A stretch of 63,997 nt of DNA, the filler included, from Collodictyon triciliatum (Eukaryota), in the NCBI GenBank assembly GCA_043381765.1. It is 6 parts of 6 records of this genome, joined end to end, with 100 filler letters (N's around TTAATTAATTAA, not from the genome) between each part and the next. Parts side by side here need not be neighbours in the genome. Positions count along the whole stretch, not along the records: positions 29,149 to 49,339 come from JBHJMP010001253.1; 5 more parts are not named here. One strand, 5' to 3'. The position numbers and the translations under genes are program-made. Within the stretch, counting starts at the first letter, position 1. Each line of letters starts with the position of its first letter. A model generated the notes under the pieces. That model did no database searches. It was not told where the DNA came from and saw only the letters and a list, made by a program, of their open reading frames with translations. Shown in pieces: positions 98 to 36,807 of this stretch.

Positions 98-623
98 TAA
101 AAATAAATGACTAAGTAATGAAACACGGTGAATAATAAATATATTAATAATTAAAAAAAATCAAGTCAACATAAAATAATAAATAAGGCGACGAAAGGGC
201 GAATGAAAATAATAACAAATAGAACCATTCATATGCGTATAGATGCACATCCACAACAAACTCATGGAAAGAAGCAAAACCTGGCACGATTGCTGGCTGT
301 ATATGTAAATATTCCACCCCACAAAGCAGATAAGGAAGAAGAGAAAATAAAGTTGCGACCTCCGCGTCCGGATGACAGCCATTCACGGCACACTGCACAG
401 ATCACATAAAGCATAATGATCAATCCTTTTCCCTTCAAAGTCTTTTCTATCCACACTCTCCTTCTCTTCATCTTTGAGCCAAACATCGACAGTCCTTGTC
501 CCAACATAGCTTTCGTGACTGTGCGCCCAAACACTTTCTTGCACACTCCAGCTCGGGGCGATGACAGCAAACAAACGATATTCATTGGCCTTTGTTTTCA
601 GCTTATTTTTTTTTTATCGCATA

Positions 624-745
624 CTAGAAAAGGTATACCAACTTTTCGACTGGTAAACCTGGTTCGCTAGTATCCAAGGTCTCACCATTTTTTTCACATA
701 GGTCGTTTAGTGGCGAACGCTGCCAGGAAAGACCCAACAGCCCGT
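624..745 (-). ncRNA. Putative Fanzor omega-RNA scaffold / element right end
   Basis: Immediately 3' of the Fanzor RuvC-III motif on the same strand. Contains hairpin GCTGTTGGG-TCTTT-CCTGGCAGC (741-719; pairs by G-U only on the minus strand), stem CCTTGG-ATACTAGCGAA-CCAGG whose loop ATACTAG is complementary to the terminal CTAGTAT, and hairpin AGGTTTACCA...TGGTATACCT. The last 69 nt recur at 34392-34460. Confidence 0.6.
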
Positions 746-2639
746 TTTTTAAAGAAAGATGTAGGCATATTTTGAAGGATTAAAAGAACTTGCTTGAGTA
801 TATCTTTTTAGCGCTATTCAAGTCCCTTGTCAAGAGTACAGTTTCTTTGCTTTCTGAGCGATTGTATTCTTTAAATACGAGGCATCTATACACCTTTTTT
901 TATATTTCCTATCAGTGTCATGTATTCCAGTTCTTTTTCGCAGTTGCATCACATCTTGGAGGTTCTAAATTCATTTACAATAAATGTTTCAAAACGTTTG
1001 GATAGTATTTTTCGTAATCCTCTTCCGATTGTTGGCATAAATACTTCATTGGAGATTTTCTACTCCTGCCTCCATACACCAGTACAACATCCTTGCCAAA
1101 TGTCTTTTCGATTCGGTCCATAAACAATTCTTCACTTCTTTTTGTATTAACATACTGTCTCCATCCCATCTTTCGAAAAGTTACTTGTTCATAAAATGTG
1201 GATAATTCTATCTGGCATCTTGATTTCATATGTACATATTTTCGAATTTTTTCATAATCGACCGTGCATGAATTATATTTACTCAGGTCTATGTCTAAAT
1301 CGATTAAAGATACTCTTGATGTCTCAAACAGCTTATTCTCTTAAATAGTCATTTGACCAAAAGAAATAGCTCTTTGTAAACGTGTTGCCATGCTTATCGC
1401 TGAAGAATTGTACTTTTCTTTATTCTTGCACAAGAGTATTTTGCGATTATTTATAGATTTGGTATCATGTCTTCATTAGTGTGCCGTGCAACGTAATTTC
1501 TTACCTTTCTCATCCACCATGTAAACCAAATTAAACTTGCCTGCGTCCACCCCAACTGTTTTTTTTTCTCGCTAATGAAGATATCTGCTCTTCGGAAAGG
1601 TCATCTGTATAAACATATTCTTGGATTTTTTTAATTATATTTGGATTTTGAATTTGAAATATCTTTCTTTCCAAACAATAATGACACCGCCAAGCCGTCT
1701 GATTGTATCATATATTTAAAATTATAGTCTCTTTGATGAAACCCCTTTTCTTCATTTCAAAGAACTCATCCCATAGGGTCTCTTTGCATCCTGATATGTT
1801 CTTCAGTAATTACGTTTTTCAAATAATACTAATAGACCCATCAAACATGCAGTATCTAGATTAATATGACATGGTATATTGTTAGTTCTTGTAGAGATTG
1901 GTTGAAACAGTTTGACTCCAATGTCCTCAAAAATGCGATTCATGTAAATCAGACACGGAATGTACTTATTTGGATTGACTTTGGCATCATATTTGATACC
2001 ATTTACAATATCGCTGGGAATGATACGATTCAAATGTATTTTAGCCCATTCTTTACATTGTTCCGGGTTTTCGAGTTTCACGAAGATGGTTTTTTAAACT
2101 TTCGTAACTCTGCCTTTTTAATAGCTTCCGTCATATTCTTCATCTTTAGGAACTGTTTGATTTATAAAGCGCAGTAGCCTTTTTACAAAATGTTCCTTAA
2201 TGTTATTATGATAAGCTGTTAACACTTGCTTCGCCAAGTACGGTAATACACGAGACAGTCCAACCAACAGAAAGCGTTCTTCTTGGGACAAAAGGAATAG
2301 AAAATCATTGAGATAAAAAGCCATCATGTCATCTCTCAAACCTGGTTTTTTTTTTAAAAAAAAATCATGCGGGTCTATCTTGTGAAACTATTCCGACTGT
2401 CTTTAAAGCGTACAAAAAAACTTTCCATCGATTGTTGAGAGTTATTGTGATTTCAATATGCAACATCTTGCAAACAGATAAGTGTCGGTAACCAAATTAT
2501 GACACAATAAAACCATATCGTTGATTTTGTAATAGTCATCCGCATTCTTTACAATCGACTTTAGAGATGTTTTCACATTTTGATAGCATAGCTTTACAGA
2601 CTTTTGATTATCAGACTCGAGTCATTATCTTTTCCTCAT
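740..2639 (-). pseudogene. Fanzor1 (TnpB/Cas12-like RNA-guided endonuclease), frameshifted and with premature stops
   Basis: Manual translation across frameshifts gives: N-terminal YQNVKTSLKSIVR..KINDMVLLCHNLVTDTYLF; YHNNIKEHFVKRLLRFIN; LFQPISTRTNNIPCHINLDT; YNFKYMIQSDGLAVSLLF; RuvC-I VGVDAGKFNLVYM (D 1545-1547); FRKMGWRQYVNTKRSEELFMDRIEKTFGKDVVLVYG; MPTIGRGLRKILSKRFETFIVNEFRTSK (RuvC-II E 970-972); Zn finger *CNC...VYRCLVFKEY; RuvC-III TRDLNSA (D 822-824). About 630 codons, no introns evident. Confidence 0.9.
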
Positions 2640-3364
2640 CTAAAAGTCTTTGTTTTGCTTTTTCCTACAGGAAACTACCGAGTTTTCAATTTTAGTAAAA
2701 CTTTAGTCAAGCAGTCAATTTAAAAATAAAATAAAAAACAACTGCATAAAATCAGTTTATGTAAAATTAAGCATCTACTGAGACTCTCAAAATATGTGCT
2801 TTGTGACAAACAAACACATCAAGTTTTTTTATAAGTGATTTGAGACAAAACCCTGAGAGCCGATTCGGCGAGTTCGAAAGGACGGCCGTATAGCCATTGC
2901 AACTGAAAGTCAACATATCGGCCCCAAACAACATAATTACCACCGTAAGTGTGGATAGCATGCTTTTTTGGAATGCACGTTTGGTGGCAGGTTTATAGGG
3001 TGGGTTCTGTCCAGGCCAAGACAAGAACTTGTTTGTCATTTTTGAATTCTAATGCAATAATATTACACCATGGAAAATAAAATATAAATTGATTACATGA
3101 ATAGAATGAGATTATTAAGTATTTTTTAACCTTATTATATGCTAATTATATTATTCAGGTTGTTTCTTAGATTCATCAAAGCTCCTGCTTTTGTCGATCC
3201 AGACTTAATTCGGTGATTGTCTGTGCAATAAACTGCTATATCTATGGGTACACATTCGTTGTATAAAAAGTGTTGTGCCTTGGAAGGGATAAAACCACGT
3301 TCGTCACAACCTTTGTAATGAAGTTTATCCATTTACAGGCTGAATGAAACTGAAGAGAATGGAA

Positions 3365-3555
3365 AGAAAAAAGAGAAGAAAAAAGAGAAGAAAAAAGAGA
3401 AGAAAAAAGAGAAGAAAAAAGAGAAGAAAAAAGAGAAGAAAAAAGAGAAGAAAAAAGAGAAGAAAAAAGAAAAAGAAAAAGAAAAAGAAAAAGAAAAAGA
3501 AAAAGAAAAAGAAAAAGAAAAAGAAAAAGAAAAAGAAAAAGAAAAAAGAGAAAAA
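3365..3555 (+). repeat. Purine-rich tandem repeat (AAAAAGAGAAGA)n / (GAAAAA)n
   Basis: Direct reading; source of the spurious poly-K/F ORFs. Confidence 0.9.
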
Positions 3556-4175
3556 GATACGGATGATTGAATCATAGTAACTAACACTGAGCACTATATT
3601 CATACTGACCTTGCTGCCCGTGGGTAGATGGCTAGATCTTGAGGCCTTTTTTTATTCTCCTTCATTATCATTATCATTATCATTATTACTCGTTTCAAAG
3701 AGCTCACTACGTCTTATTCATAGGTTGTTGTACTCACGGCTCGGTGGCAGCCGGCGTCCTGATCGTCGGTGTGTCTCGGGGCATAACCTGTGTGGTAAGG
3801 GATGTGGTAAAGTGACCTTTTCGCTCTCTGCGTTGACTGCGTCAGCCTTCTCGGTTTGCGTGCGATCAGTAGGCATTCATTGGCGCAGGGTTGTGGCACT
3901 GGTCTCCTGGTAGGCGGTCTCGTCCTACTCGGGATCGCTCTTTCCGATCACTTGCTTCCTTGCTTACTTTTTTTTTTCGGCTTTAGAATGTAGTGGGTTG
4001 GGAGAAGAAGGAAAGAATGCCAATGTTATAATATTACTTTTTAGAAAATGTCCTTTCTCTCTCAGTGTTTATTATTTCTCAGTAAAACAGATAGTTTTTT
4101 TTTTTTTTTTTAATGATTGTGTTCTTTTTCATTGTTCCTCTCAAATCTCTCAGTGCGATCACCACATTTATTCAC

Positions 4176-4290
4176 ACAAACAAACAAACAAACAAACAAA
4201 CAAACAAACAAACAAACAAACATACAAACAAACAAACAAACAAACAAACAAACAAACAAACAAACAAACAAACAAACAAACAAACAAACA
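4176..4290 (+). repeat. (AAAC)n microsatellite
   Basis: Direct reading. Confidence 0.95.
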
Positions 4291-4404
4291 GTTCAATTTT
4301 TTTTTTATATTCGCTTTATTGTGGAACGGTATATCGACAAGAGCGACGCCGCTGGATGCGCTGGGGCGATGACGTGTGCCCATCACATGCTGCATTCCTG
4401 GCCC

Positions 4405-33377: not shown

Positions 33378-33856
33378 ATGCCACCCGCGCCTGGAGCTGG
33401 AAAGAAGCCTCCAAAGTCCCCTGCCACAACTGCCGCTAAGGAGGCATCCTTAGCCCCAGAAAAAGTCGCTTCCTAGACGGTCAAGGAGTCGAGCACAGAT
33501 TCGTCCGAAGTGAAGAGGCGTGCCAAGCGTGCAGAGACATACTTGTCATACATTTACAAAGTCCTCCAGCAAGTTCACCCAAAGACTGGTATCTCACAGC
33601 GTGCGATGGCAATCATGAACTCATTCATCAACGATACATTCGACCACATTGTCTCAGAGACTGGTCGTCTTGCTCGCATCAAAAATGGCGGGACTCTGTC
33701 CTCACGCGAGTTGCAAACATCCGTTCGTCTGATTCTTCCTGGAGAACTTGCTAAGCACACTGTCTTGGAAGGGACCAAAGCTATAAGCAAGTACAACAGC
33801 TCAGGAACGCCCGCCTCAGCCTTAACCAGTGATGGAGTTTATCTCATCCTTCACAG
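33378..33856 (+). pseudogene. H2B: Histone H2B pseudogene
   Basis: ATG 33378 (MPPAPGAGKKPPK) is in frame with the histone fold [52 protein letters not shown]. In-frame TAG at 33474-33476, several non-conservative core changes, no normal stop, LINE insertion at the 3' side. Confidence 0.82.
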
Positions 33857-34143
33857 TGAAACACGCCCGCATTCTTCGCTACTCTGACCGCAAGCGAAGA
33901 GAGATGTGGGAATGTGTCGTGCGATATCTCCCACAGCATATCCAATCCCTGCCACCCACGCAGCCAATCAACCAGTTGGGTCGCCCACCTGACCAACTCG
34001 CCATCACTGACATCTTTCCAGTGCTAGCCTCTCCATAGTTGCGTCTTCTCCTTACTCGCGTTTGCTCTCTCCCATGCGCTCCCATCCCGCCCCTTTGTAT
34101 GGCATAACCTCGCTACACTTTGAATCGAATAAAGGGAAAAAAA
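33857..34143 (+). mobile_element. 5'-truncated non-LTR retrotransposon (ORF2 C-terminus + 3'UTR + poly(A))
   Basis: TSD ATCCTTCACAG (33846-33856 / 34144-34154); ends CACTTTGAATCGAATAAAGGG-A(n). The first 33 nt are identical to the reverse complement of 63053-63085. Confidence 0.85.
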
Positions 34144-34292
34144 ATCCTTCACAGAATCCTCACAAATTTCATCTGTATCATCCCTTCGCGTACTCGACGA
34201 GCCGTCAAGAGAACGCAACAAAATCTATACAACAAATATTGGCAGGCTTTGTTTGTTTCTTTGTTTGTGTGAGACAAAATTTCCAAGATTGA

Positions 34293-34459
34293 TCTATCCT
34301 ATACCACGCGCTGTGAATAAATATGGTGAGACCTTGGAACCCCCCCTCGGTCCTGCACAAAAGTTGAAAGGAAGAATAAAAAAAATAAAATAAAATGGTG
34401 AGACCTTGGATACTGGCGGACCAGGTTTACCAATCTTTCGATTGATATACCCCTTCTAG
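34293..34459 (+). mobile_element. Miniature non-autonomous Helitron-like element carrying the Fanzor right end ('ghost' copy), interrupted by a retro-stub
   Basis: 34392-34460 aligns ungapped with 691-623 (-) at 57/69 nt. Ends in hairpin + CTAG followed by T; candidate 5' end A|TCTATCCTATA at 34293. Confidence 0.65.
34339..34388 (+). mobile_element. Short A-tailed retro-insertion (family B) inside the ghost element
   Basis: TSD AATAAA(T)ATGGTGAGACCTTGGA (34316-34338 / 34389-34410); body TCCTGCACAAAAGTTGAAAGGAAGAATAAAA. Confidence 0.75.
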
Positions 34460-34652
34460 TCTAGAATAAACAGAAAAAAAGAAAAAGGATCAAAACTAAT
34501 TTCCTTGACGCCCAGAAGTTATCGCAAAATCACATACCTTCTTCCCTAAGCCCCACTCAGTTAATACTCAACATCGGATGGTCTCTAATCTATGCCGATC
34601 AGCACAACCTCGAAGCATTCATATGTACGACTAACCTTTGCTCGATTGTATC

Positions 34653-34693
34653 TTCACCATCCTGCACAAAATCGAAAGGAAGAATAAAAAAAA
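34653..34693 (+). mobile_element. Short A-tailed retro-insertion (family B)
   Basis: TSD AACCTTTGCTCGATT(G/C)TATC (34633-34652 / 34694-34713); body TCCTGCACAAAATCGAAAGGAAGAATAAAA. Confidence 0.8.
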
Positions 34694-35244
34694 AACCTTT
34701 GCTCGATTCTATCCGTCCCGTTGTCCTTCTCGACAGCCAGATTGAGGCTGGACAAACCAGAAAGACCTATGCTTTTTATCTTAAGGGACTCGAATAAATC
34801 TTGCTTTACTACTTGCCCTGTCACACTCAATGCCCAGAAAGAAAAAAACGAAAGGGTGCAGATGTCCTGATTCAAGCCCATCGCCGCACCTGGGGCTTCA
34901 GCCCTATTTTGAGGTATTCTTGTCGGGTGTGTACATATTGGGGAAAAAAAATTATCTTTTCCAAATAAAATTGTATTCATTGAATGGGAAAGTGTGTCTT
35001 CGAATTTGTCACCCTTTCAGCAAGACTAACAAAATCATCGAGCGCGTCCTCGTCCTGTTGTTGTTTGCTGTCATAATCCCCATGTCCGAAGGAAAGTAAT
35101 TCCTCGGGATGGTTTTGATCAATACTCCCATGAAGCTGAGAGCGCTTCAAGTCCTCTTCAATGAAGAAACATCAATTTTCATCACCAATCAATGTAACAC
35201 TAGAGCGACCATCTGCACCGAAGTAGCAAGATTATTACCTTGTG

Positions 35245-36807
35245 ATGGATAGCCGCGAGATGCATAGGTGTGTGAGTCAGCCCGCTGAGATGGATGAATC
35301 GCCAAGCTCTCAACAAAATGGAGCCTTCCATCCGTTCACTTCATTTCCTCGAGACGGAAACAGTTGCGGTGTGTGCCCTTCATCACAGAGCAGTAAGTTT
35401 CACCGTGGGCTATATTCACTCAGACAAGAGCGAGACCGACAGCCTAGTTGGGGCGAATCGTTCAGGCAAGCGACCGTGATATGGTGGAGAGTAATTTGGA
35501 GAAGTTTGCCAGTTTTGTATGCAACAACCTTGACCATGTGGGTATACTATTCACCAGCGATATTTCTTTCCTCCGAGTTGTTGTGTGATGTCAAGAAGGT
35601 TGTTTTTGAACACTTGTTACGGGCAATACGACTGATGCTGTTCTGGGGCTCTATGGGCCTTACTGCTGTAGAAATATTTAGTTTTCAGTTTGCATCCAAA
35701 TCTTTGTTATTTGCCCTCGCGCCGGGATATGTATTAGAAAATATTATTGCTTTCGTAACAGAGTTGCAGTCTCCAATCTACCTGAATGTAGGGTATTTAT
35801 CTTCCTTGGCATTCCTTGGTCTTGCATTTTACTTGATTTACAAACAAGAGAAACCAGTGAATAGCAGCCCAGAGCAGGAGTCGCATTATAACATGACAAA
35901 GGACGGTTCTGTCTCGGCATTATTCAAAGGGTTGTTGTGCACTTTTGTTTTGTTAATTTTTGTTTTCATCAATATATTAACAATGTATTTAGGGTCGGAG
36001 TTTCATATCCAGATTCTATTTAGAGTTGTACTATTTCCTGTCAGCTTCGGTTTGTCCAAATGGATGCACACCATGCTAATATTCGATCTCCCACCAGAAA
36101 ATGCGGAAAGGAGACTATTGCTATATAAGTTGACCAATCATTATATCCAATTCATTGGGAGAATCCTCTTATCAAATATTGTTGTTGACAGCGTTGTATC
36201 TGTCGAATTCATAACGATTAGTTTCATCGTTTCTTTCTTCGAAATGGTTTACTCAATTACTTTACCTTATCGTGCTGCTGTCTCTTACAAAGCCCAGAAT
36301 ATTCTGGCGTATTTCTCAGTAGTTGTAAAATCTGTATTCATCATGAAAAATCAAGTGGAACACATTCCTGCCTTCTCTAATGCACAACTAGATCCTAATG
36401 TAAACGAAGACCGTATATCCTTCCCGGGGAACGAAACGAATAGCAAAGAAAAGTATATACAGGCAGCTGTTTCATTCCGATACAAACACATATGTGATGA
36501 CATAACATCGGAAATACATGGAATAGTAATAGCTCCTTTACTAATGTACTTTATTCATCGACTTGTTGTGGATGAATCACTCCAGCCAATACAAAAATTT
36601 CAGGATGTTTTGTGGTATGTACTAATACAGTTGTTCTTTGAGTCTTTGCAGGGCATTGTATCTCTTGGATATGGAGTTCGGAGAAAAAATATCACGCAAA
36701 TGAATTTCAGCGATTGGAAGCCATCTTCTGGAAAAACAATATATGCATGGTCTCTATTGTGTGCCTTCTCTATTCATGTACTTTTGCTCGATAATTTGAA
36801 TAGCTAA
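35245..36807 (+). CDS. Intronless multi-pass membrane protein of unknown family (520 aa)
   Basis: Uninterrupted ORF with roughly 9-11 hydrophobic segments; AATAAA follows the stop. Confidence 0.75.
   Translation: MDSREMHRCVSQPAEMDESPSSQQNGAFHPFTSFPRDGNSCGVCPSSQSSKFHRGLYSLRQERDRQPSWGESFRQATVIWWRVIWRSLPVLYATTLTMWVYYSPAIFLSSELLCDVKKVVFEHLLRAIRLMLFWGSMGLTAVEIFSFQFASKSLLFALAPGYVLENIIAFVTELQSPIYLNVGYLSSLAFLGLAFYLIYKQEKPVNSSPEQESHYNMTKDGSVSALFKGLLCTFVLLIFVFINILTMYLGSEFHIQILFRVVLFPVSFGLSKWMHTMLIFDLPPENAERRLLLYKLTNHYIQFIGRILLSNIVVDSVVSVEFITISFIVSFFEMVYSITLPYRAAVSYKAQNILAYFSVVVKSVFIMKNQVEHIPAFSNAQLDPNVNEDRISFPGNETNSKEKYIQAAVSFRYKHICDDITSEIHGIVIAPLLMYFIHRLVVDESLQPIQKFQDVLWYVLIQLFFESLQGIVSLGYGVRRKNITQMNFSDWKPSSGKTIYAWSLLCAFSIHVLLLDNLNS

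Follow-up and report, generated by a model that had tools for sequence, protein, structure and literature searches.

A short stretch at 34293–34480 of the DNA analysed here (a window of 63,997 nucleotides from Collodictyon triciliatum, made of several contigs joined end to end) resembles the right end of a Fanzor element and carries no Fanzor ORF, which raises the question of whether it is a minimal mobile guide-RNA cassette or the remnant of a longer element. The resemblance itself was confirmed: 34392–34460 aligns with 623–691 (minus strand) at 57/69 positions without gaps, against 12–22 matches at 16 other offsets tried. As the earlier note had stated, similarity ends right after CTAG and the following T. 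Across the genome, the sequences 3′ of 123 distinct right ends are unrelated, except at one duplicated site. Also as stated, the two copies lie on separate contigs, the short one (hereafter a mini-element, or mini) on C1253 and the parent Fanzor copy on C1250, in a 75-Mb eukaryotic assembly of 14,576 contigs with some stretches masked. The retro-stub said to interrupt the short copy is present: 56 bp long (34339–34394), it is bracketed by identical 16-bp repeats that start at 34323 and 34395.

The mini-element proved to have a left end of its own. Full-length copies match positions 34247–34328 with their left ends (L074, for instance, at 77% over 83 nt with E = 3e-11); 34239–34329 is a left end from the Fanzor1 family that also supplied the right end. 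The element therefore runs from 34239 to 34459 on the plus strand, its left end fused to its right end, and maps to positions 9–98 and 3485–3556 of a 3.5-kb reference copy. A 5′ boundary at 34293 and a size of about 95 bp had been proposed; the true start is 34239, and the element measures 221 bp, or 149 bp without the 72-bp insertion. The left end was missed because the parent copy in the window has lost that part, its left-end profile match beginning only at model position 52.

All features of the mini-element are on the plus strand. It opens with the left terminus (TTGGCAGG, with A before it) and a TTTG microsatellite (34239–34269), as in full-length copies, and continues with conserved left-end sequence (34270–34311) that contains CAAGATTGA. 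This motif had been taken for 5′ flank carrying a target-adjacent motif (TAM), a reading that falls because 34239–34329 is the family's left end and CAAGATTGA lies inside it. The true 5′ flank (34226–34238) may hold a decayed target-site duplication, agreeing with 34460–34472 at 9/13 positions (p = 0.21 against mismatched pairings). The deletion junction, a 17–18-bp microhomology of the left and right subterminal regions with left-type letters, occupies 34312–34329 and is overlapped by 34323–34338, one of the two 16-bp target-site duplicates that flank the stub; the other (34395–34410) lies just after the stub. To its right come the third stem-loop of the predicted omegaRNA (34403–34426), with a loop able to base-pair with the CTAG(T) at the end, the fourth, subterminal hairpin (34428–34447; one broken pair, TTTC loop orientation) and the right terminus, CTAG then T (34456–34460). 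The copy-specific 3′ flank (34460–34480), the would-be guide, is single-copy, and no empty or full-length allele of the site was found in the assembly; a variable 3′ flank at right ends is as expected for a guide position. Rfam and tRNA scans of 33500–35300 gave no matches.

The stub in the mini-element, inserted after the deletion, belongs to a young, A-tailed retroposon family with 221 matches at ≤2 mismatches, at least 100 of them exact. Flanking duplications were seen by eye in 10 of the 11 members inspected, the remaining one having a masked flank. All of the readable stub copies (10/10; L283–L294, G000) start at nearly the same place, a short C-run, which looks less like random 5′ truncation than like a strong stop or a very small, fixed template. 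A second, older stub copy with a 15-bp duplication lies at 34633–34708; in a contig of run X1 it is absent, 34632 being joined directly to 34694, so an empty allele exists. Coverage by the single DNA run does not include the deletion junction of the mini-element. Further upstream, 33857–34145 is a 290-bp SINE-like repeat with an A-rich tail (92–95% alike, 1288 genome candidates), an apparent 11-bp duplication (ATCCTTCACAG, by eye) and no tRNA or Rfam match. Just before it, 33603–33803 holds the terminal part of a reading frame that resembles histone H2B (Pfam Histone, with E = 1e-4, short of the cut-off).

The family to which the mini-element belongs is large and decayed. Its full-length, decayed member in the window occupies 624–4296 (minus strand) and contains a broken Fanzor1 coding region, the aligned part of which spans 801–2585 (minus strand; 32% to the intact relative P0002, E = 4e-74). 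Genome-wide, the right-end core has 249–302 candidates and a 121-aa protein piece has 641 candidate Fanzor ORF pieces, in keeping with the high copy number suspected for the family. At 26 of 29 other loci the core continues into Fanzor coding DNA, which speaks against the chance association of core and Fanzor in the window that would have been implied had the core never adjoined Fanzor ORFs elsewhere. With both ends and no Fanzor ORF, the mini-element is an ORF-less member of a Fanzor family, as had been claimed. The parent protein is a Fanzor1, judging from a 243-aa piece of another copy (SpuFz1, E = 1e-10; PpFz1, 1e-8; GtFz1, 7e-4); Pfam returned no family for six Fanzor fragments, and phage records gave no match. 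No intact Fanzor ORF was found among the 150 scored of 641 candidates (491 unscored). The longest listed frame, inflated by N runs, has 318 aa against 634 aa in an intact relative, and the longest N-free frame among the fetched loci has 243 aa.

Full copies measure 3.3–3.7 kb (one of them 4.2 kb), are ~85% alike and form a star-like tree. Their left ends have a TTTGCAGG-like start, mostly after A, followed by a TTTG microsatellite and a conserved block with CAAGATTGA. True 5′ flanks are A-rich: of 24 automatic calls of 5′ termini, 11 were dropped as internal and 13 kept by eye, and 11 of these 13 have A at −1, with no sharper 5′ motif among them. The right end is followed by T in 55/56 cases under a strict filter and in 105/123 under a looser one. 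The loop of the fourth hairpin among long copies reads either GAAA (67) or its reverse complement TTTC (33), a micro-inversion polymorphism. Copies L115, L128, L133, L062 and L077 cease to be similar immediately 5′ of the left-end microhomology, as though 5′-truncated at that point.

Comparison of the mini-element with full copies suggests how its two ends came together. A near-repeat of 17–18 bp lies ~75 bp inside the left end of the full element, where full copies read TGTGAATAAATGTGGTGA, and ~70 bp inside the right end, where they read TGTGAAAAAAGTGGTGA (4159–4176 and 682–698, respectively, in the parent copy of the window, minus strand), and the mini-element joins the ends within this microhomology. 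All seven minis detected (7/7) join reference positions ~90–98 to ~3483–3487; in three of the seven, BLAST shows the right-hand side only, and the left side was placed by profile. Among the 123 distinct right ends, 114 have the upstream hairpin, seven are minis (at six sites) and two are cut otherwise. This mini share is if anything high, the searches having been aimed at minis, and six sites, from DNA and pattern searches, is a lower bound. The high copy number proposed for the ghost form itself is thus not borne out (7/123). Taken one at a time, decayed copies show the near-repeat only weakly: it outscored internal control windows in just 1/24. Among the papers listed by literature searches, none dealt with microhomology-fused Fanzor minis, which does not prove that none exists.

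We conclude that the mini-element probably derives, by internal deletion, from a high-copy Fanzor1 element that lacks a transposase and has decayed, and that today it is most likely inert. Such a deletion would have come about through template slippage or microhomology-mediated repair and, if the two junction types are taken at face value, on at least two occasions in this genome; it would have removed hairpin 1 together with the 5′ strand of the second stem-loop. Both termini having been kept, minis could plausibly have been copied in trans by whichever transposase mobilised the family. The present copy would then have decayed neutrally and later been struck by the younger retroposon.

The number of deletion events bears on this reading. 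Junction letters are left-type in two minis and right-type in five, the two types differing at two diagnostic places, an A/T difference and an indel; because both types occur, there were at least two deletion events or later conversion. Loop orientations of the minis are divided as well (three TTTC, three GAAA and one unclear). Trees and identities had no power to count origins: identity over the end blocks is 0.70 between minis and 0.70 between long copies, and three copies with a common breakpoint also fail to group, so the junction letters are what separates single from multiple origin.

Related observations concern ancestry and movement. An exact 18-mer (34300–34317) adjoining the junction occurs only here and at one other mini site (C1085/C13813), which has a differing junction, loop type and terminus; it hints at shared ancestry of these two sites despite their different junction and loop types. 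A 1.4-kb deletion derivative (L009, L017 and L225) occupies three sites with one breakpoint and only 3–4 bp of microhomology, and judged from this derivative, deleted copies of the parent family evidently moved in trans. One of its three copies has a different left-end subtype, ends apparently having been swapped between copies. Past mobility of the mini-element, which had been proposed, is accordingly plausible, since both of its termini survive.

These observations can also be read as a single deletion that was amplified in trans as a MITE-like subfamily devoid of any guide role, with junction differences introduced later by gene conversion or template switching. The breakpoint common to all minis, the like amplification of the 1.4-kb derivative, the private 18-mer at two mini sites and the clear target-site duplications at two mini sites (14/16 and 10/11) would all fit, and the differing left-end subtypes among the three 1.4-kb copies point to the end-swapping that such a history would need. 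It has to contend, however, with two junction types that differ by both a substitution (A/T) and an indel, with minis that are no closer to each other than to long copies (a comparison of low power), and with a total of only six mini sites found; MITE numbers are usually far higher. We regard a single origin as unlikely, though it is the strongest of the competing explanations.

Whether the mini-element could serve as a guide depends on what it retains of the predicted omegaRNA. Long copies end in four predicted stem-loops, the third of which may pair through its loop with CTAG(T), a pairing possible in ~91–93% of cells; it is unproven because Fanzor1 RNAs appear to have lost the pseudoknot, according to the accessible part of Yoon et al. 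(PMC10711439). Covariation of the predicted omegaRNA within the genome is not above shuffles (81/500), as expected of copies that decayed neutrally. Hairpin 1 and the second stem-loop, which occupy 682–742 (minus strand) in the parent copy of the window, are lacking or remodelled in the mini-element: hairpin 1 is absent in 7/7 minis, and in all of them the second stem-loop is reduced to a shrunken mimic supplied by the left end. With an omegaRNA model whose training set includes the window's parent copy, this mini scores 71 bits and minis in general 55–75 bits, compared with 125–163 bits for seven long copies. The statement that the element keeps the omegaRNA is not supported, since the deletion took hairpin 1 as well as the 5′ strand of the second stem-loop; the 5′ limit of the scaffold used here is inferred. 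The retained 73 nt of the mini folds no better than shuffles (z = −0.31). Three 120-nt minis give z of −0.7 to −1.3 and the best-kept long end gives −5.5, with two other long copies folding weakly (−1.05 and −1.89), so fold z alone separates minis poorly.

The nearest intact relatives of the parent family indicate which parts of this RNA are conserved. These relatives (the P0002 group, a Tc1/mariner-type giant-virus Fanzor1) are 3.3-kb inverted-repeat elements from giant-virus and metagenome contigs; their inverted ends measure 33 bp, and they carry a 346-aa ORF that, from its motif, we take to be DDE-type. Their 634-aa protein is the closest intact one found (53% over the best stretch). They have the same hairpin 1 (three pairs changed on both sides) and, directly after it, the same bulged second stem-loop overlapping the ORF end. 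The outer stem of the latter is TGACC:GGTCA in the relatives and TCACC:GGTGA here, by eye a compensatory swap. One relative, L240, has no clear hairpin 1. Loci L234–L239 and L244–L247 combine an intact 634-aa Fanzor1, a 3.3-kb inverted-repeat element, a divergent DDE-type ORF and a well-covarying RNA. Similarity to the family here stops after the second stem-loop, and the right ends are unrelated; the parent family has no match to the relatives' upstream ORFs.

Available sections of Xu et al. (PMC11423790) describe SL1 as a conserved protein-contacting stem and the remainder as less constrained. Mapped onto this architecture, the mini-element would retain the dispensable part of the RNA and would have lost the needed part. 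To judge by conservation in the relatives and by published Fanzor1 structures, a scaffold deprived of hairpin 1 and of the second stem-loop's 5′ strand, like this one, is probably not loadable. The mini-element might nonetheless be a minimal mobile guide cassette, in which the second stem-loop gets a substitute 5′ strand from the left end and the RNA loads a Fanzor encoded elsewhere. The right 70 nt are retained with two stem-loops and a possible pseudoknot, a reduced second stem-loop can fold from the left-end repeat (with 7 bp paired in one other mini), and ghost omegaRNAs function in Spizellomyces punctatus, as the accessible part of PMC10432273 reports. Against these points stand the loss of hairpin 1 from every mini, the split of this copy by the stub, the internal position of the proposed TAM, the lack of any intact ORF among 150 scored Fanzor copies, and a divergence equal to that of dead long copies (0.70 vs. 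0.70), with no sign of selection. Loading of a Fanzor in trans, as had been envisaged, is thus not supported, with 0/150 scored ORFs intact and the locus split by the stub. We consider a guide function of the mini-element highly improbable, and a guide cassette of the kind outlined equally so.

The means by which the parent family moved has features of more than one class. Its right end resembles that of Helitron1, with a 3′ subterminal hairpin and a CTRR end followed by T, and its 5′ terminus is mostly TT after A and sometimes TC after A, the latter being the Helitron1 form. Duplications of 11–16 bp, starting at the T after CTAG, flank ~4–6 of 27 paired copies (permutation p = 0.02), in conflict with the Helitron1 rule of no target-site duplication. 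A canonical Helitron1 is weakened by these duplications and by the absence of a partner with matching ends. A Helitron2 of the CRe type does not fit, the 9-bp inverted repeat lying ~40 bp inside and the 5′ flank being A-rich rather than placing the element after TTTT, and neither does a Tc1/mariner element or MITE, since the paired ends show, by eye, no terminal inverted repeats or TA duplication. A search of the genome for a Replitron HUH transposase gave no match; the controls likewise gave none. RepHel genes do exist in the genome, and the three RepHel loci found contain no end-profile hits, the best locus lacking its ends at contig ends. One locus (L151, G000 C6377:627–4208) holds a stop-free, partly masked 1194-aa RepHel Helitron transposase frame that runs off the contig, a candidate for a recently active Helitron. 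We file the parent as an unclassified Fanzor1 element without terminal inverted repeats (TIRs), working somewhat like a Helitron derivative, and not as a Helitron.

The RepHel genes, together with relatives that have 33-bp inverted ends, a DDE transposase and similarity ceasing after the second stem-loop, so that the family's present ends would stem from elsewhere, could be taken to mean that the mini is the ancestral form. A small Helitron-like element would then have captured the Fanzor gene and the first two RNA stem-loops from a mariner-type element, the microhomology flanking the insert because the capture recombined there. Such an ancestor would have to be reconciled with minis that are rare and have the same end variants as long copies, with mixed junction letters of the sort that deletion products would show, and with three RepHel loci (the best cut by contig ends) among which no transposase-bearing element has these ends; we give it very little weight. 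Craig speculates, in the part of PMC10288648 available, that Fanzor cutting causes duplications such as those seen here. A bolder scenario, which strikes us as a long shot, would have the left end carry a relic copy of the second stem-loop, so that deletion of the gene gives a 150-bp unit able to move in trans and to produce a compact RNA, guide or decoy, that binds Fanzor though the first stem is missing. No smaller mobile ghost would then be known; its Fanzor1 family would have exchanged mariner ends for rolling-circle-like ones, and Fanzor cutting where the element inserts would account for the variable duplications. An internal deletion of the parent element remains our preferred account.

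Known Fanzor systems, as far as the accessible portions of the publications describe them, offer several comparisons. The Spu-1 ghosts of S. punctatus (Saito et al. 2023, PMC10432273) are, like the mini-element, ORF-less Fanzor1-family members with both ends, and they too retain right-end RNA sequence and have a copy-specific 3′ flank. The 134 ghosts are ~550 nt long and strongly conserved, with 30-nt inverted repeats and a CA motif upstream; they carry the whole 75-nt scaffold, work in cells and occur beside 19 full-length genes (PMC10432273). The minis, in contrast, occupy six sites, are ~150 bp long and decayed, and lack inverted ends and the first hairpin, which is deleted; there is also no intact gene among the 150 scored copies here.

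The Helitron2-borne Fanzor1 elements CRe-1/2/3 of Chlamydomonas reinhardtii, in the sections of Bao and Jurka (2013, PMC3627910) at hand, lack an internal transposase, as here, keep 3′ ends intact and with a hairpin, often suffer internal deletions and show variable-length target-site duplications in only part of the copies, and extra ORF-less RNA copies exist there too (PMC3627910; Jiang et al. 2023, PMC10530073, also in part). Only the CRe elements have asymmetric inverted repeats 0–2 bp from the 5′ end, insertion after TTTT and ends in common with verified Helitrons (PMC3627910), whereas the parent family has its 9-bp inverted repeat ~40 bp inside, an A-rich 5′ flank and a CTAG end followed by T as in Helitron1. 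An autonomous partner with the parent family's ends was not found. The unclassified Fanzor1 MCi-2 of Mucor circinelloides (PMC3627910), like the family here, is without TIRs, and is given as having 11–12-bp AT-patterned target-site duplications, which the duplications here bring to mind, and an unknown mechanism. It is 7–9 kb long, with 99% identity in the 3′ part and variable 5′ regions, and no miniature forms are described in the portion of that paper available. The P0002 group consists of 3.3-kb elements that differ from the family here in their inverted ends, DDE-type ORF and unrelated right ends. The omegaRNA of GtFz1 has, as here, four stem-loops and overlaps the end of the ORF (Xu et al. 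2024, PMC11423790, in part), and the GtFz1 scaffold drawn in the consulted part of the PMC10432273 supplement shows by eye the same order of a simple hairpin and then a bulged stem-loop, a likeness of architecture seen by eye, with no sequence identity claimed.

Internally deleted, ORF-less Fanzor copies are already known and this one is decayed, so the mini-element has little significance by itself. Its value is as a correction: the paired ends set the true left boundary of the family, and the mini-element illustrates that a right-end match without an ORF is not necessarily a guide locus. Were it true that an RNA without hairpin 1 loads a Fanzor, the minimal Fanzor1 scaffold would shrink. The point of interest is the parent family, whose nearest intact Fanzor1 relatives ride on mariner-type elements, yet which here is without inverted ends and has a hairpin followed by a CTAG end and T, with duplications in a minority of copies.
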